Shown here piece by piece: positions 9,965 through 36,164 of a DNA stretch of 64,000 nucleotides. How positions within the stretch are numbered: the first letter of the stretch is position 1; the number at the start of each line of letters is the position of its first letter. This DNA is from Blastocatellia bacterium (GTDB taxonomy: Bacteria; Acidobacteriota; Blastocatellia; RBC074): assembly GCA_038211695.1 (NCBI GenBank), contig JBBQVH010000010.1, forward strand, positions 2,825 to 66,824, given 5' to 3'. The notes beneath the pieces were generated by a model. That model saw only the letters and a program-made list of their open reading frames with translations. It was not told the DNA's origin and made no database searches. A program made the position numbers and the translations under genes.

Positions 9965-10846
9965 ATGAATCAATATCTTGCCGTCTGGTTGCTGCTCTGC
10001 CTGATCTGGGGTTCGACGTGGATTTTCATCAAGCTGGGGCTGGACGATTGGCCGCCCTTTACGTTTGCCGCCCTGCGCTTTCTGTTGGCGGCAACGATCC
10101 TGTGGATGGTTGTTCTGTTCAGACGGACTCCATTGCCCCGCGCGCGTCGCGACTGGCTGATGATGGCGGGAGTGGGATGTATTTCGTTTGCCCTGAATTT
10201 CGGTTTGATCTTCTGGGGGGGAAATCGAATTCCTTCGGGGCTGACGGCGGTCTTGCAATCGGTGATTCCGGCATTTGGGCTGATCATTGCGCACCACTAT
10301 CTGCCGGGTGAGCGCCTCACAGTGGCCAAATTGATCGGCGTGGCAATCGGAATTGCCGGCGTAGCCGTGATTTTTTCCGGCCAGATGCAAGCCGCTGGCA
10401 GCGCGGCTTTGTGGGGTAGCGCGGCCATTGTGGGCAGCGCGCTCTGTGTGGCCTACAGCAACGTAGTGATCAAAGCCTACTGTGGGCACCTGGATACGTT
10501 CCTGATGGTCGCGGCACAAATGACATTTGGATTGATCCCGCTGTTTGCGCTCAGTTGGATGCTGGAAGGCGGGCCGTTCAAATTGCGCTGGACGATGAAT
10601 GCAACCGTCGCGCTGATCTATCTGGCCATCGTCGGTTCGGCCCTCGCGCTTTCGCTTTATTACTGGATGGTCAAAAAGATTGCCGTGACCAAAACCCTGC
10701 TGATTTCGCTGGTCACGCCAGTCGTTGCATTGCTGATTGGATGGCTGGCACGTGGCGAAGTGCTAACCTGGCGATTGGCGCTGGGCAGCGCAGCGATTCT
10801 GTCGGGCATTGGGATAATCGTCGTGCCGAAGCGTTCAGACACTTGA
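9965..10846 (+). CDS. EamA/RhaT family (DMT superfamily) transporter, 10 TM
   Basis: Two EamA-like halves; WGSTWIFIK and related repeats; highly hydrophobic throughout. Confidence 0.75.
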   Translation: MNQYLAVWLLLCLIWGSTWIFIKLGLDDWPPFTFAALRFLLAATILWMVVLFRRTPLPRARRDWLMMAGVGCISFALNFGLIFWGGNRIPSGLTAVLQSVIPAFGLIIAHHYLPGERLTVAKLIGVAIGIAGVAVIFSGQMQAAGSAALWGSAAIVGSALCVAYSNVVIKAYCGHLDTFLMVAAQMTFGLIPLFALSWMLEGGPFKLRWTMNATVALIYLAIVGSALALSLYYWMVKKIAVTKTLLISLVTPVVALLIGWLARGEVLTWRLALGSAAILSGIGIIVVPKRSDT

Positions 10847-10898
10847 TTGCCCGTTTTTCTCAACGGTTGTTATACTGCGCGCCAAACGGAGGTAGCTT

Positions 10899-11393
10899 AT
10901 GCCAAACATTGATGACTTCTTTATGATTGCCGATAACGCGGGCGTGCGGTTGGAGATCATTGACGGTTTGCCGACTTGGGAGATGCTGCCGAATCTGACG
11001 CATCAAAAAACAATTGATCGCGTCCGGCAAAGCTTTAAACATTCGGAATACGTCAACGGCGGATGCGAGTGCCTGCACTACTCCGACCTGCATATCAAGT
11101 TTCCTGATGGTTCGGATAAACGCCCCGACGTTTCCATCTTCTGCCACGAACCGAGCGAGACCGAATCAGCCGTGACTGAAGTCCCGGAGGCCGTTATTGA
11201 AATCGTCAGCAAGGGCTACGAGAAAAAAGACCTCGAACTCGGCCCGCCGTTCTATCTGGGCCAGGGCGTCAAAGACGTGGTTGTCTATGACCCTTACAGT
11301 AAAGTGACTCGCCACTTTACTGTCGCCGGGCAGCGCGAATATGCGGAGTCAGTCACGTTGACATTGCGGTGCGGCTGTCAGGTAACGCTCTAA
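10899..11393 (+). CDS. Uma2 family (DUF820) putative restriction-endonuclease-like protein
   Basis: Core PEAVIEIVSKGYEKKDLELGPPFYLGQGVKDVVVYDP matches the Uma2 pattern (PD-(D/E)xK-like E...K). Confidence 0.65.
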   Translation: MPNIDDFFMIADNAGVRLEIIDGLPTWEMLPNLTHQKTIDRVRQSFKHSEYVNGGCECLHYSDLHIKFPDGSDKRPDVSIFCHEPSETESAVTEVPEAVIEIVSKGYEKKDLELGPPFYLGQGVKDVVVYDPYSKVTRHFTVAGQREYAESVTLTLRCGCQVTL

Positions 11394-23382: not shown

Positions 23383-23551
23383 AAAATTGGACGGTGGCTC
23401 AAAAGGGGAGAAGAAGAGATGACGGAACAAACGAAAATAACGAAACAAACGGAAACGGAACTCGTCTTTGGCAATGCCTTTTCCGTCTCTTCAGTTATTT
23501 CAGTTTGTTCCGTCATCTCTCCTGATTGACCCACTACCGAAGATTGTTTCA

Positions 23552-24034
23552 ATGGCACAAAAAACACAGGCAGAACAACCCAAGACCGTCGCGACCAATC
23601 GCGAGGCCTATCACAACTACTTCATCCTCGAAACCTATGAAGCAGGCATCGAGTTGATGGGCACCGAGGTCAAATCCGCGCGCGGTGGCCGCGTCAATCT
23701 GAAAGATGGATACGTGATGGTGCGCGACGGACAGGCCTGGCTGCTGAATGTTCACATCAGCCCCTACACCCACGGCAACCGGCAGAATCACGATCCTGAT
23801 CGCGAACGCCGGTTGCTGATGCACAAACGCGAAATCATTCGCATCCAGTCAAACATTCAAGAAAAGGGATTGACCCTGGTCCCGACCAAACTTTATTTCA
23901 AAGGCAATCTGATCAAATGCGAGATCGGACTGGCAAAAGGCAAAAAGCTGTACGACAAACGTGAAACTGAGGCAAAGAAAACTCAGGAGCGTGAAGCGCG
24001 TACCGCAATGAAAAACAGGATGAGAGATGAATAG
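23552..24034 (+). CDS. smpB: SsrA-binding protein SmpB
   Basis: NREAYHNYFILETYEAGIELMGTEVKS...GNLIKCEIGLAKGKK. The ORF track begins at 23468, but homology starts at M29. Confidence 0.9.
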   Translation: MAQKTQAEQPKTVATNREAYHNYFILETYEAGIELMGTEVKSARGGRVNLKDGYVMVRDGQAWLLNVHISPYTHGNRQNHDPDRERRLLMHKREIIRIQSNIQEKGLTLVPTKLYFKGNLIKCEIGLAKGKKLYDKRETEAKKTQEREARTAMKNRMRDE

Positions 24035-24644: not shown

Positions 24645-26135
24645 ATGGAAGTTAAAGCGGATGCAAGGAAGTTTTACGAGATCGAATGCGACGCGCTGGT
24701 CGTTGGCGTGTACGAAGGCGAAGGCCACAAAGAAGGCACCTTGGCCGAACTGGATAAGCGCATTGGTGGCGTGCTGGCTTCGCTGGTGGAAAATGGAGAG
24801 TTCACCGGCAAGGCGGGCGAATCGGCTTACATTCACAACACCGGCGAGATGAAGGCGCGACGGCTGCTGCTGCTGGGCGCGGGCAAACAGGCCGATTTCA
24901 CCGCCGACAATGTCCGCCGGATGGCAGGCACGGCAACGCGCACATTGCGTAGCAAGAAGCTGCGCAGCTTCGCTTTCCTGCGCCGTTCCCAATTGGCTAT
25001 CGGCGAAAGTGCGCAGGCCGCCACCGAAGGCGCGCTGCTATCACTGTTCGACCCTGACAAATATCACACCAGCGACAAGACAGAGAATCATCTGGAAGCC
25101 ATGATCTTGGCAGCATCAAGTCTGGACGGGGAGGGTGACATCGAAGAGTTAAAGCGTGGCGTTGAACGTGGCCGCATTATCGCCGAAGCCACGAACTTCG
25201 GGCGCGAGATTGTTAATGAACCGTCCAACGTCATGACGCCAACCGCCCTGGCACAGAAGGCCGAAGAGCTGGCCAAGGATTACGGACTGGAACTGGACGT
25301 GCTGGACGAAGCGCAAATGAAAGAGCTTGGGATGGGTTCGCTGCTCGGCGTGGCGCAAGGTTCCGCGGAACCGGCCAAGATGATCGTGCTGCGCTACACG
25401 CCGAAAGTTGATTCCGACGAAACCATCGCCATCGTCGGCAAAGGCGTGACCTTCGACACAGGCGGCATTTCGATCAAACCCGCCGACGGGATGGAGAAAA
25501 TGAAGTACGACATGGCGGGCGGCGCAACGACCCTTTCCGCCATGCGCGCCATCGCGCAGCTCAAGCCCACGGTCAACGTCCTGGGTATCGTCCCAGCGGT
25601 CGAAAACATGCCCGGCGGACGTGCGCAACGCCCGGGCGATGTAGTTCGCGCGATGACCGGCAAAACCATCGAAGTCATCAACACCGACGCCGAAGGCCGG
25701 TTGATTCTGGCCGACGCAGTGGCCTATGCACGACAGCTTGGCGCGACCAAAATCGTTGATCTGGCAACGCTGACCGGCGCGGTTTCGATTGCGTTGGGTG
25801 ACGTATACGTCGCGATTCTGGGCAACAATCAGGATTGGATAAACGAAGTGATCGCGGCGGGCAAAAAGTCCGGCGAGAAGCTTTGGCAACTGCCTTTGGA
25901 CAAAGAGTACCGCGAACAAATCAAGAGCGAGATCGCCGACATCAAAAACGTCGGCGGGCGCAAAGCCGGCACCATCACCGGCGCGTACTTCATCCGCGAA
26001 TTCGTCGAAGACACACCGTGGGCGCATCTGGACATTGCAGGTACAGCCTGGAACGACAGCAACAAACCGTATTTGTCGGTCGGCCCCACGGGCGTTTGCG
26101 TGCGGACGCTGGTCAATCTGGTGTGTCGTGACTGA
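24645..26135 (+). CDS. pepA: Leucyl aminopeptidase (M17)
   Basis: NTDAEGRLILADA signature, VGKGVTFDTGGISIKP, MKYDMAGGA. Confidence 0.9.
   Translation: MEVKADARKFYEIECDALVVGVYEGEGHKEGTLAELDKRIGGVLASLVENGEFTGKAGESAYIHNTGEMKARRLLLLGAGKQADFTADNVRRMAGTATRTLRSKKLRSFAFLRRSQLAIGESAQAATEGALLSLFDPDKYHTSDKTENHLEAMILAASSLDGEGDIEELKRGVERGRIIAEATNFGREIVNEPSNVMTPTALAQKAEELAKDYGLELDVLDEAQMKELGMGSLLGVAQGSAEPAKMIVLRYTPKVDSDETIAIVGKGVTFDTGGISIKPADGMEKMKYDMAGGATTLSAMRAIAQLKPTVNVLGIVPAVENMPGGRAQRPGDVVRAMTGKTIEVINTDAEGRLILADAVAYARQLGATKIVDLATLTGAVSIALGDVYVAILGNNQDWINEVIAAGKKSGEKLWQLPLDKEYREQIKSEIADIKNVGGRKAGTITGAYFIREFVEDTPWAHLDIAGTAWNDSNKPYLSVGPTGVCVRTLVNLVCRD
26093..26135. repeat. Left copy of an imperfect direct repeat (the pepA 3' end) bounding the island
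   Basis: ggcgtttgcgtgcGGACGCTGGTCAATCTGGTgtgtcgtgactga encodes GVCVRTLVNLVCRD*. A 19-nt identical core recurs at 31056-31074. Confidence 0.7.
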
Positions 26136-26162
26136 GGAAGAGAAGGCAAATTCGGTAGAGCG

Positions 26163-26648
26163 ATGTCGGTAATGGACATTTACAGCAAGGAAAAAAGAAG
26201 TCAGATAATGTCCGCAGTCCGTTCTTCGGGAACGAAGCCGGAACTCATCGTCAGAAAGGCATTACATTCTCTAGGATTCCGCTTTCGCCTTCATAGCAAG
26301 GCGCTTCCCGGGAAACCGAATATTGTTCTGCCTAAACATAAAGCAGTTGTTTTCGTCCATGGATGTTTTTGGCATCACCACAAGGGATGTGGGAAGTCCA
26401 AGCTTCCCACATCGAATGCCGAATTTTGGCAGACGAAAATATTCGAGAATGTTCGGCGAGATAAGAAAACCATATCGCATCTCAGGAGACTTGGCTGGCG
26501 GGTTTTAATTGTTTGGGAATGTGAAACCAAAGGCGGCATATTCATCAAAAAGCTATACCGTTTCTTCAAGCTGACATGCCCATCGCCCGCTGCAATGTCA
26601 GTCATCAGCCGGGGAAATAAGAGGTCACGCAATGTCGCAACAAGCTAG
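26163..26648 (+). CDS. vsr: Very-short-patch repair endonuclease Vsr
   Basis: RSQIMSAVRSSGTKPELIVRKALHSLGFRFRLH...GKPNIVLPKHKAVVFVHGCFWHHH...LGWRVLIVWECE lines up with canonical Vsr along its whole length. Confidence 0.85.
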   Translation: MSVMDIYSKEKRSQIMSAVRSSGTKPELIVRKALHSLGFRFRLHSKALPGKPNIVLPKHKAVVFVHGCFWHHHKGCGKSKLPTSNAEFWQTKIFENVRRDKKTISHLRRLGWRVLIVWECETKGGIFIKKLYRFFKLTCPSPAAMSVISRGNKRSRNVATS

Positions 26649-28812
26649 GCAATCAAGCGAATCGGAGAAAATCCCGTTCCGCATGCACCCGAGAGTATTC
26701 GAGTCACTGGGTGCGGACTTAGTTACAAGTGACGCTGTGGCAATCATTGAGTTGGTGAAGAACTCTTACGATGCCCACGCAACGAGAGTGGACGTGCGCT
26801 TGAAGAAGAGTACCGAAGATAACGAGTTAATATTGGAGATTGAAGATAACGGCTCCGGTATGAACCATGAGGTAATTGAAAATGCCTGGGCAGTCGTCGC
26901 CACTCCCTACCGCGTCAAGCAAACCAACAGCAAGCAAGGACGAAAAGGGCGGAGAGCTTCCGGCGAAAAAGGGCTTGGAAGGCTATCCGCAGCGCGTTTG
27001 GGCAACAACTTGGAGATGTTTACCAAGCCCGCGAATGAAGATTGTTGGCAAGTAAAAGTTGATTGGGGCATTCTGGCGGCCTCGGATGATTTGAGTTCCT
27101 GCGAAATCCAACTTCAAAAATACAATGGCAATCCTCTTGCCGGGCGCACCGGCACGCTGATACGAATTTGTGAGTTAAAGAGTAATTGGGATGACGAAAA
27201 GATCGCTGAGCTTAAGGATTTGCTATCTAGATTGATTCCCCCCTTTGCTCGGGTTGAAGACTTTAAGATTTGGCTGACTCTTCCAGGTGAAAAAGAGGCA
27301 GAGTCTGAAGAAATTGAACCAGCAAAGTTTCTTTCCAAGCCGCCATACCTGCTGAAAGGGAGTGTAGATAAGTCAGGCAGAGCCAACTGCACCTACACTT
27401 ATGCTCCGCTACAAGGAGCGAGTCGCACGGTTGAGATTGTCCGTGAATTATGGGCTAGCAATTTCGTTGCGGCGGACAACGATCAAGACGACGGTCAAGA
27501 AGTGAACCAAGTGCCCGAGTGTGGGCCATTCAAGTTTGAGATAAGAGTTTGGGATCTCGATAAAGACGCTGAGACGTTTAAGGAAATCTCGCAAGAATTC
27601 AATTTGAATCTTGCGATGCTACGCAGAACCATAAAAAACTATCAGGGACTGTCACTCTATCGCGATGAAATACTGGTTTTGCCAAAATCGGAATCGGCAA
27701 GGGACTGGTTGGGACTTGATCTGCGCCGTGTGAGCAAAACCGGCAAGAGGGTAGGCACCAGTCAACTCATTGGCTACTTGGCAGCTACAGCCGAAAACAA
27801 TCCGAGTCTCAAAGATACAAGTGATCGCGAAAGGCTGGTTGATAATCAGGCCGCTAGGGATTTCAAAAAGCTCTTGTGGGAAATTGCCGGGCTATTGGAG
27901 AACGAGAGAGAGAAGGATCGGCTGGAAATTCGTAAACAGCGATCTTTGAAGGATTTGTTTACTGCACTTTCAACCAAGCCTCTCATTGAGCGGATGTCGG
28001 CTGCCGTGGCACAGGGAGTCGAAGCTAAAAAACTGCTCCCGCTGGTGGAAGAACATGGTGTTGAGGTTGAAAAAGCTATCGGTGAAATTGAGCAAACACT
28101 TATTTATTACAATCAACTCGCCAATCTTGGTGCTTTAGCAGCGGTGTTAGTGCATGAGGTCGGAAATAGGGTAGGCATTATAGGACGATTAACGCGGCGG
28201 ATTCGTAAGCTCATTGAAAGGAAAGATGCTTCCGCTTTGACAGTCGAAGAAGATTTGGGGCGTGCTGAACAGAGCGAGCGTGCCCTTAATCGGTTAGTTG
28301 ACCATCTCGCTCCCCTTGCAAGCCGCACGTTTCGTACCCGGCGACGTGACTCCAACCTCGAAGAGACAATTCTGAATTGCGTGGGAATGCGTGAAGAAGA
28401 GATCAAAGCTAAAAAAATCACCGTCGAGTATAAATCCGATTTGCCTTATGTTGTGGCGATTGACCCGGGCGAGCTTGACGGTATCATCCTCAACTTGCTC
28501 GACAATGCTATTCATTGGCTTTCAACTGTCAAAGATCGCCCGCGCCGCATAGAGTTTCGAGCCTTGCCAAGTAACAAAACATTGCGGGTTAAGATTGAGG
28601 TGCATGACTCTGGCCCTGGCGTAGATAAAGATGATGGAGAACGGATTTTTTTACCAGGAGTCTCCCGTAAGACAGGGGGGCTTGGCATGGGGCTTTTCGT
28701 TGTTGGAGAACTGGTAGCACAGCACAATGGAGCGTTTCATTTGATTACCACGCCGGCACTAGGTGGGGCAAGCTTTGGCTTCGATCTGCCACTTTCCGAG
28801 AGGGCAAAATGA
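26632..28812 (+). CDS. Fusion protein: N-terminal MutL/MORC/HSP90-type GHKL ATPase (HATPase_c_3-like), a central unknown region, and a C-terminal histidine-kinase core (H-box plus HATPase_c)
   Basis: N-terminus: AIIELVKNSYDAHA (N-box), IEDNGSGM (G1), GEKGLGRLS (G2). C-terminus: VLVHEVGNRVGII (H-box-like), ILNLLDNAIHWL (N), VHDSGPGVDKD (G1), GGLGMGLFVVGELV (G2). It overlaps the vsr stop and the next gene start. Confidence 0.7.
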   Translation: MSQQARQSSESEKIPFRMHPRVFESLGADLVTSDAVAIIELVKNSYDAHATRVDVRLKKSTEDNELILEIEDNGSGMNHEVIENAWAVVATPYRVKQTNSKQGRKGRRASGEKGLGRLSAARLGNNLEMFTKPANEDCWQVKVDWGILAASDDLSSCEIQLQKYNGNPLAGRTGTLIRICELKSNWDDEKIAELKDLLSRLIPPFARVEDFKIWLTLPGEKEAESEEIEPAKFLSKPPYLLKGSVDKSGRANCTYTYAPLQGASRTVEIVRELWASNFVAADNDQDDGQEVNQVPECGPFKFEIRVWDLDKDAETFKEISQEFNLNLAMLRRTIKNYQGLSLYRDEILVLPKSESARDWLGLDLRRVSKTGKRVGTSQLIGYLAATAENNPSLKDTSDRERLVDNQAARDFKKLLWEIAGLLENEREKDRLEIRKQRSLKDLFTALSTKPLIERMSAAVAQGVEAKKLLPLVEEHGVEVEKAIGEIEQTLIYYNQLANLGALAAVLVHEVGNRVGIIGRLTRRIRKLIERKDASALTVEEDLGRAEQSERALNRLVDHLAPLASRTFRTRRRDSNLEETILNCVGMREEEIKAKKITVEYKSDLPYVVAIDPGELDGIILNLLDNAIHWLSTVKDRPRRIEFRALPSNKTLRVKIEVHDSGPGVDKDDGERIFLPGVSRKTGGLGMGLFVVGELVAQHNGAFHLITTPALGGASFGFDLPLSERAK

Positions 28813-29963
28813 GTGAAAAAGGTGATGACAAAGTTTGGGTACTGATTGTTGAGGATACGCGTGATAGAGCAGTTACTCTTCGGCAAGAAATCATTGAAAG
28901 GTTGGGGAATGACGTTGAGATTGTCATCGAAGAAGATCACGAGAAAGCCTCGCAGGTCTTACTTCGCCCGCATCCTTACGATGTTGTGATCCTTGACTTG
29001 TTTCGCGGCAATCCGACAAACGGGGATAAGGCGGGCCAAGTTCTTTGGCAGGAAATATTGAATGTAAAGTTCGTCCCCGTGCTTGTTCATACTGCTGGTG
29101 CTTGTGACCTTGAACCGCCTTTTCCCGAAAAACACCCGATTCTTCGCTGCTTCCCGAAAACTTCCGATAGTGATGTGAAGATAGCTGAACACCTGTTGTC
29201 AATTCGCAAGTACGTTATGGAGTTAAGAGAAGTGCAGCAGGAGATCAATGCTGCATTCAAAAGCGTTCTCCTGGTCACGTCGGCAACCATCTGGAAAGAG
29301 GAAGCTGATGAGGAACAGCGTGCTCAATTGCTTCTACGAAGCGCGCGAAGACGAATGGCGGCGACAATGGATTCTGCCACTCAGGTCAGTCAGGAAAAGC
29401 TTCTGTTTTGGGAGCAGTATATTTACCCGCCTATGGAGCCAAGCTTATTGATGGGAGATTTGCTGCGCGCCAAAGACAAAGACAAGCATGATCCGACAGC
29501 TTACCGGCTTGTCTTGACGCCTTCTTGCGATTTGGCTTCCGGAGTCGGCCGCCGCACTATCTGCGACGTTTTAGTAGCAAAGTGTCAGAGTAGAGAGGCT
29601 TATGTGAAGGCGGTTGGCGTGACGATCGGAGATTCGATGACTGACAAAAATAAGGAGCGACTGGCAAGGTCGTTCAACGATGCGCATTACGGCAGCCATG
29701 TCTTTTTGCCGGAGTACAAGTCTGTCCTTCCAACGATGGCCGCTTGCTTGCGTGACTTGGAATTGATTCCGATCAACGAGATTGCATCACAAGATGAATC
29801 GAATGGAAAGTTCACCAGAGTTGTTTCGATTGATAGTCCCTTCCGAGAACAAATAGCGTGGGCTTATCTTCAAATTGCCGCAAGACCGGGAATGCCCGAA
29901 CGTGATTCGGAGCGATGCATTCAAGATAATTTTGCGCCGTCAGAGCCATCCGTAATCTCATAA
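28809..29963 (+). CDS. Receiver (REC)-like domain protein with an unrecognised C-terminal domain of about 270 aa (candidate effector)
   Basis: N-terminus VLIVEDTRD...YDVVILDLF(Asp)...VPVLVHTAG fits the CheY-like receiver layout. The C-terminal two-thirds has no motif I recognise. ATGA overlap with the upstream kinase-like gene. Confidence 0.6.
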   Translation: MSEKGDDKVWVLIVEDTRDRAVTLRQEIIERLGNDVEIVIEEDHEKASQVLLRPHPYDVVILDLFRGNPTNGDKAGQVLWQEILNVKFVPVLVHTAGACDLEPPFPEKHPILRCFPKTSDSDVKIAEHLLSIRKYVMELREVQQEINAAFKSVLLVTSATIWKEEADEEQRAQLLLRSARRRMAATMDSATQVSQEKLLFWEQYIYPPMEPSLLMGDLLRAKDKDKHDPTAYRLVLTPSCDLASGVGRRTICDVLVAKCQSREAYVKAVGVTIGDSMTDKNKERLARSFNDAHYGSHVFLPEYKSVLPTMAACLRDLELIPINEIASQDESNGKFTRVVSIDSPFREQIAWAYLQIAARPGMPERDSERCIQDNFAPSEPSVIS

Positions 29964-29983
29964 TTTTTGAAGGTGATTAAACG

Positions 29984-31040
29984 ATGATTGCGATTGATTT
30001 CTTTTGCGGGGCTGATGGGCCAACCCGAGGGTTGCTGAACGCCGGAATTGAAGTCCGATTTGGAATTGATTATGACGCAGTATGCCGTGAGACTTACGAG
30101 ACAAACAATCAGCCTGCACACTTCCTTAAAGCGGATGTGAAAACGCTTGAAGTCGCGGATATTCGAAGAGAGATTGGTGAGATTGATTCTGACAATTTGT
30201 TACTCGCCGCGTGCGCTCCATGCCAACCTTTCTCACAACTCAACCGTGGAGGAATCAATGATGATGAGGCGACATTGCTCGGGCGGTTCGGGCGATTTGT
30301 TCAAGACTTGCAACCCCGCTACGTGTTTGCGGAGAACGTTCCGGGCCTCAGCCGTGTTCCCGGCCAGAGCACGCATAAGAGATTCCATCGCATGCTGAAA
30401 AAACTCGAATACGGTGTCTGGGAGGGCGTGCTTGATGCGAAGTCGTATGGTGTCCCGCAAACCCGCCGCCGATTCATCATGATTGCGATTCGCGGAATTG
30501 AGCCGACCGCTCCGCCACACACACACGGGCGGGGAGCGGGTTTACTTCCTTTTGAAACGGTGGGGAATGCAATCAGAGATCAGCGTCACTATCCGCCAAT
30601 CCAAGCCGGAGAAACGCATCCGGCAGTCCCTAATCACAGGGCAGCCATTCTCTCCGCCGTTAACCTCGAGCGAATTCGTCATATCTCCTTGCAATGGAGG
30701 GGAACGAACTGCTTGGCCTCAGCACCTATGGCTGAAATGCTATTCGAACGGGCATACCGGCCACACTGACATCTATGGCCGAATGAAATGGGAAGCACCC
30801 TCGCCGACGCTTACTTGCAAATGCATCAGTCTTTCTAATGGCAGGTATGGTCATCCCGAGCAAGATCGTGCCATTTCATTACGCGAAGCTGCGAAACTGC
30901 AAAGTTTCGATGACGATTATGTCTTCCAGGCCGACGGACTTATGCAAGCGGCAAAACAGATCGGGAATGCCGTACCAGTAAAATTTGCCGAAGCGATTGG
31001 GTTGCATATTCGAAGGCTTGCCGGAGAACTCAGCCATTAG
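29984..31040 (+). pseudogene. dcm: Dcm-type DNA (cytosine-5) methyltransferase, interrupted by a single frameshift near 30680-30690
   Basis: Frame 1 carries motifs I (FCGADG), IV (PCQPFS), VI (ENV) and VIII (QTRRRF), and runs to ...NLERIRHIS. Frame 2 continues SPCNGG...YGRMKWEAPSPT...EAAKLQSFDDDYVF...GNAVPV (motifs IX/X). The ORF track shows two overlapping ORFs, 29984..30769 and 30483..31040. Confidence 0.75.
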
Positions 31041-31042
31041 CC

Positions 31043-31084
31043 AGCGTCTTTGTGTGGACGCTGGTCAATCTGGTCTGCGGCTGA
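31043..31084. repeat. Right copy of the direct repeat, a vestigial pepA 3' end
   Basis: gtctttgtgtGGACGCTGGTCAATCTGGTctgcggctga translates as VFVWTLVNLVCG*, a degenerate copy of the PepA C-terminus, immediately after the dcm stop. Confidence 0.7.
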
Positions 31085-31098
31085 CAGCCATCTTATTT

Positions 31099-31665
31099 TC
31101 ACGGTTCCAAATTCAGCCGCCGATCGTCATACAACCGTATGTGGTCGGCGGCTTGCCATTGGGCCAATTGGACGATCTGGCCAGTGTGATAGCTGAAGTG
31201 CTCAACCACATGAAAAACCGCGTCGAACACCGTTTGAGCGTAACCTTGCGGCACGCATTCACGTTGCATGGGCGCGTCAGATTGTGCGGCTGCCAATTCA
31301 TCCTCCAATCCCGCCAACACGGCATCTACTTCATCCAGCGTTCTCGTCAGCAAGATAATCAACTCGTCTTTGCCAATCCCTTCGCGTGCGGCGAATTCGC
31401 TGGCGCGTTGGCGCGTGTCCGCCGCGCCGCCGATGCCGGCAATGATCCACTGGCGCACGTTGCCCACCAGATGCAGAATCAGATTGCCGATGCTGTTGCT
31501 GGCCTCGTTTGGGTGCCACCAAACTTGTTCGTCGTCTAATTCAGCCAGCGCGGCGCTGATCTTGATGAAATAATCTTCGCGCAATCGGAAGCGCGCCTGC
31601 CGCAGAAAGGCAAGTCCGGCAGGCAGTGGCGCGGCAGGTGGTTCAAGTAAAAATGATCTTTTCAT
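31099..31665 (-). CDS. DinB/YfiT-like (DUF1572) family protein
   Basis: EDYF...L..LDDEQVWWHPNEASNSIGNLILHLVGN...HVVEHFSYHTGQI matches the DinB_2 four-helix-bundle pattern. The N-terminus overlaps the tail of the adjacent transposase ORF, so the start is uncertain. Confidence 0.6.
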   Translation of the reverse strand: MKRSFLLEPPAAPLPAGLAFLRQARFRLREDYFIKISAALAELDDEQVWWHPNEASNSIGNLILHLVGNVRQWIIAGIGGAADTRQRASEFAAREGIGKDELIILLTRTLDEVDAVLAGLEDELAAAQSDAPMQRECVPQGYAQTVFDAVFHVVEHFSYHTGQIVQLAQWQAADHIRLYDDRRLNLEP

Positions 31666-32579
31666 TCGGCAATATCTCCTTCCTTAAACTCTCGAATGCT
31701 GATTCGCAAACCTTCTTTCTGAGCGGGATCGGACGTCTTACCCTGTTACGGGCAAAATGCCAACAGCCAAGAGTGCCTTGCCTCGTAAGTGCGAACAGAG
31801 TTTCAATGCCCCATCTTTCCTTGTATTCCCGGTGCGGCTCCGGCGAGTGTTCCGCCGAAACCGGAATCAGGTACTCGCCCGATCCGAGGTAACAACCGCT
31901 TAGATACAGTTCCATCCCCCACATCTGACGCGCTTCGGGCAGGACTAACATCTGATTGACTCTGGTTGAGGTGAATAATCGCCAGGCGTGAACCAGCTTC
32001 CCGCGACTGTTGCAAACCGGCGTATCCTTCTTCAAGCGCATCCGGAATTTGATCCGATGCTGACGCAGAAAACGGAACCATCGTTTGCCGACAAACTCGC
32101 GATCGCCCAATAAACATTGGATATTTTGCGCGCCGAAGAGGTCAATGAAAATCTCGATCAGCGTCTCTCGCTCGATCGTGTCGGAGTTGCCGGTCTTGGG
32201 CAGCGGCAACCAAACGACTGGAAACCCGATCCCGCGATAAACGATTGAGAGCATCAAAATGTTGACGTCAACGGCACCGACTTTCCAGGCGCGTCCGATC
32301 CAGCGCCAGCGTGTAGGGGCCTTCGTCGCCGAGCAGTTTGACGACAAAGTGGGACAGTTCGGCATAAGGCAATTCGAAGTTGTGGAGGAACCGTTGGAGC
32401 CGTTTGTAGTTCGACTCTTCTTTGGCGTTGCCGGAAAAGGCCGTCGCGAGAATCGAGAGGTTGACGGTCCGGACCGCGTAAAGCGCCAACAGAAAGCGCG
32501 TCACAAATTTGATGCGAGCTTTGTTCCAAGGTAAATTCTCAAGCAACGTTTGCTCAAGTGAGCGAATGTCGAGTGCCAT
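31643..32579 (-). mobile_element. IS4/IS5-superfamily DDE transposase gene, split by a frameshift (ORFs 32268..32579 and 31643..32365). The IS ends were not identified.
   Basis: N-terminal ORF LLENLPWNKARIKFVTRFLLALYAVRTVNLSILATAF...YKRLQRFL; C-terminal ORF with DREF...KERWGIETLFALTRQ (DDE_Tnp_1-like). The two overlap by about 100 nt in different frames. Confidence 0.6.
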
Positions 32580-32798
32580 CGTGCGATCTCCTTTCAGTTT
32601 TGGTGGACCGAAAGTTTAATCGTGCGATGGCCTTAGCCGTCAAGCCCACAAGTCAGACTCATTTTTTGTCCTGTAGAGAAGTGTCAGGCACTACGTTTTC
32701 AACTACTTTCCCAACCACGCCTGGGGCGTACAAAACCGTTGGCGGAAGAAAAAGCACGGTCATCCCAGAAGATGAAAACCCGGATTGCTTTGTTACTA

Positions 32799-33919
32799 AC
32801 TGATGTTACGCAGTGGCCAATTGTGACTTCAACTTGACAAGCTCGGCGTAGGCGGATTTTACCGCCGACAGATAGAGCTTGGATTTCAAGGCGAAGTGGT
32901 TGAGCTTGGTCTTTATTTTGAGCTTCTCCAGTTTGATATAAGCGCACAAACTGGCAAATAGATGATTGCGTTGACTCGTCTCGGTGCGCGTCGGCGACTT
33001 CTCCGGCGAGGCATTCTGCTTGAGCGATTTGTGGTAGACCTCGATGCCCCATCGTTTTTGAAAGAGCTTCGCGATACGGTCAGCGTTGAGCGTCAAGTCG
33101 CTCGTCACCAGGTAGCGCACGCCCACCGAGCCGTCTTCGTTTTTGAAGATCTGCTTGAGCAAGAGGACTGCAAAAGGCACGCCCTCGAGCCAAACCTGGC
33201 GGGTTGTGTCTGCTGGCAAATCGAGTGTACTGACTGCCACGTAGGGACCGCGTTGATTGTCGGTTTCGCCCAAGGCCACCTTGCGGTTCTCCTTGAGCGG
33301 CATGATGAAGTCTTTCTTGAGATCGAGTTTGATGAACTTCATATTGTCGGCGGACGCATACCAGAGGTCATTGAGCACGTATTGGAAGAGCACCTGATTA
33401 TGCACCGCCACGCGCAGCAACATCCGGTAACGCTGGTTTTTGGTGATCGGAGAGCGACGCGCGGGTTTTGCCGGTCTTGGCGTCAACATATTCTTCTGTC
33501 TTCTCGACCGGATCGAAGGCAATCGGCAAAGACACTTCGCCGACGTTATAGAAAGCCGTCAAGAACTCGATTCCTTTGACGTGCCTGCTCAGAGAATGGC
33601 TCCAGTGCCAGCAGATAATGTCATTCTGGTCGGTGTAGAGCTTCTTGCTCAGAGAGTCATCAATGCTGATGACCCCGTCCGGACGTTCGATCTGACGGAC
33701 AAGCGGTTTGCTGACGCGCCACAAATCGGCACTGGTCTTGGGAGCATCGGCAAGCAGGCGGGTCACCTGATCGTGGCTGACCTGACCGTCAAGCATCCGC
33801 GCCATCCCGGTTGCAGTCGCTGGCCCGAAGCTGCTGATCAAGAAGTCAGTGTAGAGGTCGAACAGTTCATCATTCATCTGTCAAGTTTACTCTTGGCAGC
33901 CCGACTGCGTAACATCAGG
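32799..33919 (-). mobile_element. Insertion sequence (about 1.12 kb, IS5/IS4-superfamily) with 15-bp perfect terminal inverted repeats. The transposase is split by a frameshift (33398..33877 and 32806..33522).
   Basis: IR-L aaCTGATGTTACGCAGTgg (32799-32817) against IR-R ccgACTGCGTAACATCAGg (33901-33919). C-terminal ORF contains FQKRWGIEVYHKSLKQ (a DDE transposase signature). The two ORFs overlap out of frame. Confidence 0.7.
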
Positions 33920-33921
33920 AA

Positions 33922-34671
33922 TTAAGTCGGCCTTTTCTTCTGTTTTGCCGGTTTGATCTGCTTAACCCGCCGCTTGGAGCGTTCGCGCAGCGCGGCCCGC
34001 GCATTCCTGACCGCATCGCTTTGACCGAGAGGCGAAAGGGCGGCGAAGTTCGGATCGGCTTCGCTCAATGCCTGCCGCAGTTTCATCCCTTCTTTGATCG
34101 CTTTCTCGACTTCGTCGTAGATCGCATTGCGCGGCGCGCCTTTAATCCGCTCCTGTTCGGATTTGGGCGAGTCAATGAAGAGGAGATAGAGCAGAAGCGG
34201 GCCGATGCTTTCGCCGGTGGCCAGAGCACGAACGATCTGGCGAGGAAGCGGCTTGAAGGCAACGGCCCCGGCGTGGATGAAGATGTAGAGCGCCTGCACC
34301 GGGACGAGCTTGACCGGCTGAGGATTAGGGCTGCTGACTTTGCCGAGCGGATATGCGACGGCCACGAATTCCCCGCCCCCGAATCGTTGTGCGATGGCCG
34401 CCGTCAGATGGATCACCGCGCAGTCACATTCGCCCGCGATGTCGAGATGGTGGATGTCTCTCTGATACTTAAACACCAGCCAGGAAAACATCGTTTTGTT
34501 CAGATCGATGATGATGAACTCGTCCGGATTTACCATTGATGAGATACCTCGTTTTGATGACGTTGATGCGAGCGCCGTAAGCACACGACAGCGCGGCTTG
34601 GGTTGTTGAATGTTTGTGTGGGAAGTAGGCGAGCAGAGACGGCTCGCCAGGAAAGGCTGGAGGGACTTCAA
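33922..34671 (-). CDS. Hypothetical protein (249 aa), mobile-element associated. True start possibly at MVNPDEF.
   Basis: Long ORF next to the IS with a basic C-terminal tail (KRRVKQIKPAKQKKRPT). No confident domain assignment. Confidence 0.4.
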   Translation of the reverse strand: MKSLQPFLASRLCSPTSHTNIQQPKPRCRVLTALASTSSKRGISSMVNPDEFIIIDLNKTMFSWLVFKYQRDIHHLDIAGECDCAVIHLTAAIAQRFGGGEFVAVAYPLGKVSSPNPQPVKLVPVQALYIFIHAGAVAFKPLPRQIVRALATGESIGPLLLYLLFIDSPKSEQERIKGAPRNAIYDEVEKAIKEGMKLRQALSEADPNFAALSPLGQSDAVRNARAALRERSKRRVKQIKPAKQKKRPT

Positions 34672-34892
34672 CTACAAGAACTAAGATATAACAGAGATTG
34701 AAAGACCAGCCAATCCGAAAGATGAAATGCCAATGGCAAAACTGCCGACTGACAAGATGACGTGAGAACATTGAGATGCCTCGAATATGTGAATGATTCG
34801 GCTTGGAGTATCACTATCATTGCCGACGCTGAATCCGGACGCTGTAAGCGGTCAGGCATTGCTCAGCCTGGCCGCTTGCGCGGTGGTATTCC

Positions 34893-35186
34893 CTACCCTC
34901 TCCGAAAAGCCGCGACGATGCGGCTGGCCTCGTCCCGTGATGGCGGCGACAGGCGTTTGACCGCCTTTTGATATTGCTCGCGCCGTTGTTGTTTGAGTCC
35001 GGTCGCTTGCGTGATCAGGCGATTGATCCACTCCTGAACCTCGCTAAAGGAAAAGGCGACTTTCCTTTTCCCGATGCGGATGCGGGTGAATTCATCCGTC
35101 CCGGCTTTGCCCGCCAGAATGGTCTTGACCGCCAGCCCGGTCATTTCCGCGACCTGCTGCGCGTTGATCAGTTTTTCCGTCTTCAT
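34893..35186 (-). CDS. Helix-turn-helix DNA-binding protein (excisionase/AlpA/MerR-like)
   Basis: LINAQQVAEMTGLAVKTILAGKAGT...RIGKRKVAFSFSEVQEWI is the typical short HTH excisionase-type layout. Confidence 0.55.
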   Translation of the reverse strand: MKTEKLINAQQVAEMTGLAVKTILAGKAGTDEFTRIRIGKRKVAFSFSEVQEWINRLITQATGLKQQRREQYQKAVKRLSPPSRDEASRIVAAFRRG

Positions 35187-35508
35187 TCCGCACCTCCGCT
35201 TTGGTCGGAGATCGCCTTGCGCATCGCCTCGACCGCAGCTTCGGCCCTGGCCGCGATGCTGGCCTGAATGTCGCCCACGGAGATGAAAGCCTGATCAATC
35301 TCTCTCTCATCGCGATTTCCATCTCGATCGGAGAGACATCGGTGCAGATTTTCGCCAGAGAAAAATGTTTGATCAGGCAGCCGATGCCGCCCAGATGGCT
35401 GATGGCCGTGAGCGCGATCAGCCGCTGTTTTTCGTGTTCGGGAGTTTTGGAGGTGACGCCGTGAAGCTCGTACTCGATGGCGCGAAGCGAAGAGATCGGT
35501 GTAGACAT

Positions 35509-35805
35509 TTAGGCAGCCTCCTTGCTTTCGTCTTCGGTTTCATCTTCGTTGAGGATCGTGATTCCGGCCTCGGTCACGAGGTGAAGCAATTCGCCGAGAT
35601 TGGCCATCATCAAATGAAGGCTGTCGCCGGTCAGGTCGTTGATCTTGTTTTCGTCCACCATCTCCATCAGCGCGCCAATGGCCCCCGTGTGGCGAAGGGC
35701 GGCAAACATGGCATCGGATCGGGTGGCAGCGGATTGCGGCAGCAATCGGATTCCATCGTAGTGACTGGTCCGGTATTCAATGTGCAACGCCGTGTTGTTT
35801 TTCAT
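35509..35805 (-). CDS. Hypothetical small protein
   Basis: 98-aa ORF, coupled by a 4-nt overlap to the upstream ORF. Confidence 0.3.
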   Translation of the reverse strand: MKNNTALHIEYRTSHYDGIRLLPQSAATRSDAMFAALRHTGAIGALMEMVDENKINDLTGDSLHLMMANLGELLHLVTEAGITILNEDETEDESKEAA

Positions 35806-36164
35806 TGGGCTGCCTCCTCGATTTGCCGCAGCCGCGATGCGAGTTTCGGGCGGTCGCCTTCCGTGGCTTTGGCGATCCGTTCACGCAACTTGTTTTTGAC
35901 CAGGCGCAGGAATGCGGCGGTGTCGTTCTCGACCGCTGCCCACTCCGAACGGCGCAGCGACACCAGGTAAGGCTCTCGCCGTTGCCCTTCCCCGTTGGTC
36001 AGTAACATCACGCGCAGGCCGCGATCATTGAGGCGAACGCGGAACGTCAGGTGAGGCAATTTGATCGTTTTTGATTTCTGGCCATTCCCTTTGGAAGCAG
36101 CGACTTTGGGCCATTTGTGGCTAGCCACAAATGGCGGCTCGGCTGGCGGTTTGTGGCTGGCCAC
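35802..36164 (-). CDS. Hypothetical protein. The annotated 5' end runs through the palindromic repeats, so the start is uncertain.
   Basis: The ORF N-terminus (ASHKPP...ASHKWPK) is encoded by the two palindromes, which suggests that part is regulatory DNA rather than coding. Confidence 0.3.
   Translation of the reverse strand: MASHKPPAEPPFVASHKWPKVAASKGNGQKSKTIKLPHLTFRVRLNDRGLRVMLLTNGEGQRREPYLVSLRRSEWAAVENDTAAFLRLVKNKLRERIAKATEGDRPKLASRLRQIEEAAQ

Follow-up and report, generated by a model that had tools for sequence, protein, structure and literature searches.

A cytosine methylase-linked ATPase-kinase and receiver cassette with a predicted MazF/CcdB-like output domain in a Blastocatellia bacterium

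The DNA considered here is a 64,000-nucleotide stretch from a Blastocatellia bacterium (GenBank assembly GCA_038211695.1, contig JBBQVH010000010.1, positions 2,825 to 66,824 of the forward strand); the whole stretch is called the window below, and all coordinates without another label count from its first letter. Four genes on one strand, together occupying 26163-31040, form the cassette that is the subject of this report. They encode a Vsr endonuclease, a soluble protein that joins a MutL/MORC-type ATPase to a histidine-kinase core, a receiver protein with a predicted toxin-fold output domain and a Dcm cytosine methylase. The first-pass annotation of the window, which was made from the letters of the sequence, had placed the kinase and receiver genes between vsr and dcm; all four genes were confirmed at these positions, with the qualification that dcm is broken. 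The four genes are as follows.

26163-26648, plus strand: vsr, very-short-patch repair T:G mismatch endonuclease, 161 amino acids (Pfam Vsr, PF03852, 1.9e-33; TIGR00632, 8.5e-45)
26632-28812, plus strand: paraMORC-type GHKL ATPase/histidine kinase fusion, 726 amino acids, soluble (Pfam, NCBIfam and profile searches)
28809-29963, plus strand: receiver-effector gene, 384 amino acids (alignment and structure model)
29984-31040, plus strand: dcm, C5 cytosine DNA methyltransferase, frameshifted (PF00145 on two open reading frames; TIGR00675)

The same annotation had described overlapping start and stop codons across all four genes. This is true of the first two junctions, where the 3' end of vsr overlaps the kinase gene by 17 nucleotides and the kinase stop overlaps the receiver start by 4 nucleotides (ATGA), but not of the third, where a spacer of 20 nucleotides, which includes a ribosome-binding site, GAAGGTGA, lies between the receiver gene and dcm. 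The four-gene arrangement is not a product of chance, because the same gene set was found again in 80 loci from many phyla (see below).

Three parts can be distinguished in the ATPase-kinase protein.

26689-27231, plus strand: MutL/MORC-type GHKL ATPase domain, amino acids (aa) about 20-200 (HATPase_c_3, 7e-18; MutL/PMS2, 5e-5)
27232-28041, plus strand: conserved middle domain, aa about 201-470 (family alignment)
28042-28812, plus strand: histidine-kinase core, consisting of the DHp helices (H508-E509) and then the catalytic ATP-binding domain (HATPase_c, 2e-24; PDB kinase cores, 4e-27)

Both ATPase assignments of the first-pass annotation were borne out. The N-terminal domain is, by its sequence matches, of the MutL/MORC (HATPase_c_3, paraMORC) type and not an ordinary kinase ATPase. 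HATPase_c_3 (PF13589) matches aa 35-164 at 7e-18 in the Pfam scan, and a profile built from 27 sequences of the kinase family finds the N-termini of MutL and PMS2 in the PDB over aa 31-92 (5e-5). The catalytic residues E40, N44, D47, D72, G74, G76, G111, K113, G114 and G116 are invariant in the 27 kinases; they lie in the motifs ELVKNSYDA (aa 40), IEDNGSGM (aa 70) and GEKGLGRLS (aa 111). The NCBIfam model for BbrUII/HgiDII (NF050001) also matches, at 2.5e-21, over model positions 7-185 of 659, which correspond to the ATPase domain. With 75.9 bits against a curated cut-off of 550 bits, the kinase scores far too low to be a full-length member of the BbrUII/HgiDII family.

The C-terminal part is a complete histidine-kinase core. 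HATPase_c (PF02518) covers aa 611-722 (2e-24, Pfam scan), NCBIfam models of sensor kinases that include ZraS, AtoS and FixL match from aa 480 or thereabouts, and the family profile recovers the solved cores of FixL, ZraS and ThkA over aa 470-718 (4e-27). The H-box pair H508-E509, which begins the motif HEVGN (aa 508), is invariant in the 27 kinases, and so are the N, G1, F and G2 residues of the ATP-binding domain (N621, N625, D659, G661, G663, F673, G683, G685 and G687). No transmembrane segment was found in the kinase, the highest hydropathy over 19 residues being 1.41. More than 1300 homologues were collected, and all of them carry both PF13589 and PF02518.

The domain between the two ATPases is strongly conserved in the 27-kinase alignment, with the invariant motifs FEIRxWD, YRDxILVLPKSE and DWLGLDLRR...TSDRE. 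When aa 166-480 were searched, nothing was found in Pfam at E<=10, and phmmer gave only chance matches against the PDB. Presumably this domain is an S5-like transducer, of the sort by which MORC and paraMORC modules are defined, or a DNA-facing part of the sensor, a reading for which the YRDxILVLPKSE motif is only suggestive. It is also present in the kinases of other methylase-linked plasmid systems (tblastn, aa 13-472).

The receiver-effector protein likewise has three parts.

28830-29168, plus strand: receiver (CheY-like) domain, aa about 8-120, with the phospho-acceptor D63, the pocket residues E15-D16, T95 and K117
29169-29378, plus strand: long helical linker, aa about 121-190, ending in an RSARRRxAAxMD helix (secondary structure of the model, alignment)
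29379-29933, plus strand: predicted MazF/CcdB-fold effector domain, aa about 191-375, with the motifs GD217, YR233LVLTPSC240D241 and SID342SPFR346E347

A receiver domain had been expected at the start of this protein, and it is there and intact: across 28 proteins of the family neither D16 nor D63 varies, Thr or Ser occupies position 95, and K117 is conserved in at least 90%. Response_reg gives weak matches in 21 of the 28 relatives, and the window protein itself has no usable match in the Pfam, NCBIfam and PADLOC scans; a phmmer search of the protein against the PDB returned noise only. The rest of the protein had been described as a C-terminal domain of about 270 residues. The non-receiver region exists, but it divides into a helical linker of about 70 residues, with R181 and D188 invariant in its terminal helix, and a domain of about 190 residues.

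The output domain was modelled on its own (aa 166-384, with 48 relatives), because matches to receivers masked the rest of the protein. The model has a pLDDT (predicted local distance difference test score) of 89.3. All of the 50 best Foldseek matches are MazF or CcdB structures, with probabilities of 0.99-1.00 and target-normalised TM-scores of 0.56-0.73. As modelled, then, the output domain has the SH3-like barrel fold of MazF and CcdB, into which an insertion of about 40 residues is placed, and it is not an ordinary transcription-factor domain, as the earlier proposal of a receiver-domain effector required.

The residues that are invariant in the effector domain are W201, E202, D217, C240-D241, S340, D342, S343, R346 and E347. 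The Cys-Asp pair reaches further than the rest of the family, and it is found at the equivalent place in the distant partner proteins of Acaryochloris (NPSCDF), Campylobacter (TPSCDI) and Devosia (NPQCDL). It also occurs in those of Burkholderia glumae (AACDY followed by AQN; locus L086, 7073-8266) and Agrobacterium (ASCDY followed by AQN; locus L089, 7122-8441), two proteins that the hidden Markov models of the family do not detect and whose motifs resemble the TPSCDL of the window protein. Because the pair persists in such distant partners, it is likely to be the functional core of the effector domain, and it may unite very divergent effector families. A PD-(D/E)xK nuclease reading of the 'SCD...VAK' segment was also considered and ruled out, since K258 is not conserved and the fold is MazF-like.

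Homologues of the whole receiver-effector protein number 431 at 90% clustering. When a profile of the C-terminal domain was searched, it matched 954 clusters (50% identity). The E-value is below 1e-30 for 271 of them, and the best 150 of the 954 have an identical receiver-plus-domain architecture throughout.

The dcm gene of the window is read in two open reading frames, 29984-30769 and 30483-31040, which match DNA_methylase at 8e-36 and 3e-14. The two are separated by one frameshift near 30681-30689, which does not lie in a homopolymer and falls into the variable region that separates motifs VIII and IX. An intact Dcm of 345 aa is present in the relative L081 and is 58-71% identical (three-frame reading and tblastn). 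The break may have arisen in the assembly, it may reflect genuine decay, or the methylase may consist of two subunits. L081 is the closest relative on a long contig; in it dcm is followed by a gene with an R2K_3/R2K_2 domain (10210-11058), and no vsr was called there.

The gene linkage was counted in the 80 loci returned by a genome scan. These loci span the Acidobacteriota, Planctomycetota, Chloroflexota, Nitrospirota, Desulfobacterota, Bacteroidota, Verrucomicrobiota, Spirochaetota and others. The kinase gene is immediately upstream of the receiver gene in 77 of them, and the other three are truncated by contig ends. A C5 methylase gene adjoins the pair in 74 loci, directly downstream in 62 and directly upstream in 12. 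Vsr is nearby in 43 loci, in variable positions, and absent from 37. The link of the kinase-receiver pair to a methyltransferase, which had been proposed from the window, thus holds across phyla. No further conserved neighbour, such as a hidden nuclease or a MazE- or CcdA-like antitoxin, was found around the loci, and clustering of the flanking open reading frames gave antisense artefacts only. As no other gene is conserved around the 80 loci, a classical restriction nuclease is not part of the cassette.

The three main genes have not evolved in the same way. In a set of 20 loci the identities of kinase and effector co-vary (Spearman rho 0.72), and the methylase co-varies less (rho 0.44); kinases that are 60-64% identical are found with Dcm proteins that are about 36% identical. 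Since close kinases accompany such distant Dcm proteins, the methylase has been exchanged. The kinase and effector are therefore a co-evolving core pair, and the methylase is exchangeable.

Several distant relatives of the cassette are located on plasmids, and the gene order differs among them. It is Dcm, kinase and receiver protein on pREB1 of Acaryochloris, and kinase, partner protein, Vsr and Dcm in Burkholderia glumae. On the pTet-type conjugative plasmids of Campylobacter jejuni and C. coli it is kinase, receiver protein and dcm. For example, pCCDM224L of C. coli and about 40 similar plasmids (L085, 4989-9442) encode a receiver-effector of 340 aa and have dcm on the opposite strand, and the Campylobacter cassette adjoins vapD and type IV secretion genes. 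In general, the cassettes on the conjugative plasmids of Acaryochloris, Campylobacter and Burkholderia are surrounded by genes for toxin-antitoxin systems, integrases and conjugation.

Homologues of the sensor half (aa 1-480) of the kinase also occur in kinases that have other partners. A Bacteroides finegoldii plasmid (L087, 4995-10097) encodes an ATPase-kinase, a receiver protein of 209 aa, an HNH nuclease and an N6 methylase. The kinases of Devosia, Acinetobacter and Rhizorhabdus go with a partner protein of about 635 aa, and the one of Agrobacterium with a 439-aa partner, a helicase and an EcoRII-N protein. Because the sensor half recurs with these different partners, the ATPase-kinase is a sensor module common to several systems, and its outputs are interchangeable.

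In the window the cassette is horizontally acquired and mobile. It lies in an island (26100-36000) with a GC content of 0.47-0.53, and of 0.47-0.50 in the stretch that holds the cassette, compared with 0.55-0.59 elsewhere, and the island is flanked by pepA (24645-26135) on one side and by the ATP-synthase operon (from 37451) on the other. The remaining features of the island are the following.

31099-31665, minus strand: DinB-family gene
31643-32579, minus strand: fragmented DDE transposase gene, downstream of dcm
32806-33877, minus strand: fragmented DDE transposase gene
34893-35186, minus strand: AlpA-like gene

No integrase was seen between 26100 and 36000, and no tRNA gene that would explain the insertion site is near, the sole tRNA gene of the window being tRNA-Phe at 2439-2514. 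As a separate observation on the RNA genes, smpB is present at 23468-24034, yet ARAGORN found no tmRNA gene across the 64-kb window.

We propose that the cassette is a module for defence or addiction that is linked to methylation and whose toxin-fold effector is switched on by the kinase, and we regard this proposal as having about an even chance of being correct. As judged from the alignments, the residues of a phosphorelay are complete in the kinase and the receiver, and phosphotransfer between the two is predicted. The other elements we infer: which signal the kinase senses, what methylation contributes, what the effector acts on and by which chemistry, and, from the gene context, a defence phenotype. 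In such a module Dcm would mark the host DNA. The MutL/MORC-type ATPase and the middle domain stand where ordinary kinases carry a sensor domain, and this part of the kinase would detect foreign or unmodified DNA, a consequence of infection or the loss of the cassette. The kinase would then autophosphorylate on H508 and the phosphate would pass to D63 of the receiver. Phosphorylation, probably by way of dimerisation through the long helical linker, would pair and activate two toxin-fold domains; MazF works as a dimer. The activated effector might attack a nucleic acid, for which RNA, the target of MazF, is the likeliest candidate, or poison an essential enzyme, and growth would stop in the infected cell or in the cell that had lost the cassette. 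Vsr would accompany the module optionally and repair T:G mismatches that arise from 5-methylcytosine.

A more specific version is that the ATPase acts as a MORC-like clamp, which separates methylase-marked from unmarked DNA and reports by a His-Asp phosphorelay to a toxin of the MazF/CcdB fold whose Cys-Asp active site would be without precedent, so that the outcome would be restriction without a restriction enzyme, in the form of abortive infection or addiction. We put this version forward tentatively and consider it rather doubtful.

Several observations weigh against the proposed module. The relation of the output domain to MazF is seen in the fold only: a profile search of the domain against PDB sequences and a Pfam search at E<=10, which covered PemK_toxin and CcdB, gave no match. 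An hhalign comparison with a small alignment of MazF, Kid, ChpBK and EndoA (of whose sequences only that of E. coli MazF was verified against the PDB) was non-significant, with a probability of 0.9%. In that non-significant pairing GD217 falls on G10-D11 of MazF and R233 on the catalytic R29, and the catalytic Thr52 is aligned with Q260, which is variable, so that this residue is not conserved. Because Thr52 is missing and there is no significant sequence similarity to MazF, the RNase activity is a guess from the fold. To our knowledge, the invariant Cys-Asp pair has no counterpart in MazF or CcdB either. The methylase raises difficulties of its own. A broken dcm lies beside intact kinase and effector genes in the window, and strict killing of cells that lack methylation protection would be hard to reconcile with this unless the break is an assembly error or this copy is silent. 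The swapping of the methylase under a highly conserved middle domain argues against a kinase that reads the site of its own Dcm. In one locus of the Thermodesulfobacteriota (L010, 5762-9128) the pair has no methylase or Vsr within 6-8 kb, and this orphan pair is flanked by purH and an outer-membrane efflux gene. Finally, in Ambrosia, a related system that has been tested, phage gained no protection from the methylase, and a model of transcriptional control is preferred by its authors (bioRxiv 10.1101/2025.09.30.679545).

A rival explanation, put forward for the class in 2021 and for Ambrosia in 2025, is that the kinase-receiver pair is a regulatory two-component system that controls the adjoining methylase or unlinked restriction genes and is not itself an effector. 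A signalling role over restriction-modification has been suggested for such pairs (Bellieny-Rabelo et al. 2021, PMC8011034), reporter genes within the Ambrosia cluster were induced on infection and its receiver protein is said to have a winged-helix domain, and the kinase and receiver of the window look complete and functional. However, the predicted fold of the window output is not a DNA-binding one, and we consider a regulatory pair improbable. About equally small is the chance we give to a two-protein restriction enzyme, in which the toxin-fold Cys-Asp domain would be a new DNase that cuts unmethylated DNA when licensed by the ATPase-kinase. In favour of it, the pair is almost always linked to a C5 methylase and the cassette holds no nuclease besides, and the N-terminal ATPase does resemble BbrUII/HgiDII (2.5e-21) and the type II restriction models of PADLOC. 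Nevertheless, neither a known nuclease motif nor the sort of metal-binding constellation that DNases typically have is present in the domain, and we know of no DNA-cleaving member of the MazF/CcdB fold. MazF is able to bind single-stranded DNA analogues (PDB 5cr2), and paraMORCs have been proposed to act with nucleases in restriction systems (PMC2292703), both of which would suit such an enzyme; with a classical restriction enzyme, however, a frameshifted dcm beside its intact partners would be lethal, and at locus L010 a methylase is lacking.

The position of the two genes between vsr and dcm, with the kinase gene overlapping vsr, could also mean that they are accessory to very-short-patch repair. 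The MutL-like N-terminal domain would then assist Vsr at the T:G mismatches that Dcm gives rise to, in the way that MutL stimulates Vsr in E. coli (their interaction is established and is cited in PMC2292703), and the kinase would report DNA damage. We give this explanation very little credence: 46% of the loci (37/80) have no Vsr and its position varies in the others, a role in repair would give little reason for a toxin-fold output, related kinases are paired with N6 methylases and HNH nucleases where Vsr would have no role, and the cassette is mobile and plasmid-borne. Independent of all these explanations is the matter of whether the window copy is a decaying, non-functional remnant, whatever the function of the family. 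This is a real possibility, if not the one we would expect. The single frameshift of dcm lies outside any homopolymer and two fragmented DDE transposase genes are immediately downstream, as in a locus that is breaking down. On the other hand, the vsr, kinase and receiver reading frames are full-length with all of their conserved residues intact, and the sequence probably comes from a metagenome assembly, in which single-base errors occur. The break is also placed as in M.AquI, a natural two-subunit methylase that is split within the region between motifs VIII and IX.

A system of this kind is already known from computational work and has one experimental relative, Ambrosia. Three points nevertheless appear to be new, because no paper that connects receiver domains with MazF and paraMORCs came up in our literature search. 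These are the modelled MazF/CcdB-like fold of the output domain with its invariant Cys-Asp, the demonstration of a large branch without a restriction nuclease, and the finding that kinase and effector evolve together whereas the methylase is exchangeable. Modules in which a kinase and receiver are linked to a methylase are common, their mechanism is unexplained, and the sole relative that has been tested was modelled as transcriptional control; a toxin fold on the receiver, together with the missing restriction nuclease, points to a direct effector mechanism. If the proposed module is real, a DNA-modification system would be wired to a phosphorelay and a growth-arresting toxin, which would broaden the concept of restriction-modification and lengthen the list of outputs of response regulators. 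In the clamp version these would gain a new output class, and the immune logic would be widespread, with about 950 clusters at 50% identity in many phyla and on conjugative plasmids. As the family is large, occurs in many phyla and is carried by Campylobacter conjugative plasmids, it is open to experiment and bears on how plasmids are maintained.

The first-pass annotation had stated that no described system combines these parts. This statement does not stand, because the architecture was already reported by Bellieny-Rabelo, Pretorius and Moleleki in 2021 (PMC8011034) and the related Ambrosia has been tested. The 2021 study was computational and dealt with 644 regions from 628 strains, in which kinases consist of HATPase_c_3, a new DHp domain (HEF_HK, PF19191) and HATPase_c. 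Of these kinases, 91.6% were linked to receiver-like proteins (Response_reg_2, PF19192). Type II restriction-modification genes were over-represented in the regions, C5 methylases especially, and Vsr was often just downstream. The kinases were proposed to derive from paraMORCs and a regulatory role was proposed for them, and the C-terminus of the receiver protein was given no fold (PMC8011034).

The window cassette shares with the HEF_HK/Response_reg_2 systems a soluble HATPase_c_3, H-box and HATPase_c kinase, an adjacent receiver protein with the Asp, Thr and Lys residues, and the linkage to a C5 methylase (74/80) and Vsr (43/80). The window kinase has no PF19191 match at E<=0.1, however, and there is none among the 120 homologues listed. 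The model itself is present in the library that was searched, because it weakly matches the distant kinases of Devosia, Acinetobacter and Rhizorhabdus. PF19192 gave no match in the window protein, its 28 relatives or the plasmid partners, with the limit that it matched nothing that was scanned and that its presence in the library is unconfirmed. In its architecture the window cassette fits the published description feature for feature, and its kinase is outside the PF19191 model.

Ambrosia consists of AbrR, AbrA, AbrB, AbrC and AbrD, is anti-phage in Pseudomonas and requires the receiver Asp (bioRxiv 10.1101/2025.09.30.679545). Its parts are an XRE regulator, an N6-adenine methylase, a HATPase kinase, a receiver with a winged helix and an HNH nuclease (10.1101/2025.09.30.679545). 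Both Ambrosia and the window have a methylase, a HATPase-type kinase and a receiver protein in a single cluster. As far as can be compared by description, they differ in that the window has a C5 methylase, Vsr and a predicted output of the MazF/CcdB fold, and neither an XRE regulator nor an HNH nuclease. The Bacteroides finegoldii plasmid locus has the gene content of Ambrosia minus XRE, and its kinase is homologous to aa 13-405 of the window kinase (tblastn, 2e-23).

An analogy to Detocs had also been drawn in the first-pass annotation. It survives as a likeness of logic, in which an infection-sensing kinase acts on a receiver fused to a toxic effector, and not as a relation of proteins, as PADLOC found no Detocs protein; its scan of the window returned only type II restriction, methylase and Vsr models. 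Detocs reportedly has a DtcA kinase, a DtcB buffer receiver and a DtcC effector in which a receiver is joined to an ATP-degrading PNP domain. The window has no buffer receiver and no PNP effector, and its putative sensor is a MutL/MORC-type ATPase that is tied to a DNA methylase.

The relation of the output domain to MazF, Kid and CcdB would be one of fold and not of family, given its insertion of about 40 aa, its Cys-Asp motif and the lack of a MazE-like gene. Furthermore, the MazF, Kid and CcdB toxins stand alone, whereas the domain in the window is fused to a receiver.

The paraMORCs were described as components of restriction-modification systems (Iyer, Abhiman and Aravind 2008, PMC2292703), and fusions of a HEPN RNase domain to a paraMORC ATPase occur in the neighbourhood of restriction-modification genes (PMC3710099). 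Like them, the window cassette has a MutL/MORC-type ATPase near a cytosine methylase and Vsr, and an effector of a predicted RNase-type fold is coupled to it, as in the HEPN fusions. The difference is in the coupling, since the ATPase of the window is fused to a kinase core and its effector is predicted to be reached by phosphotransfer rather than by fusion.

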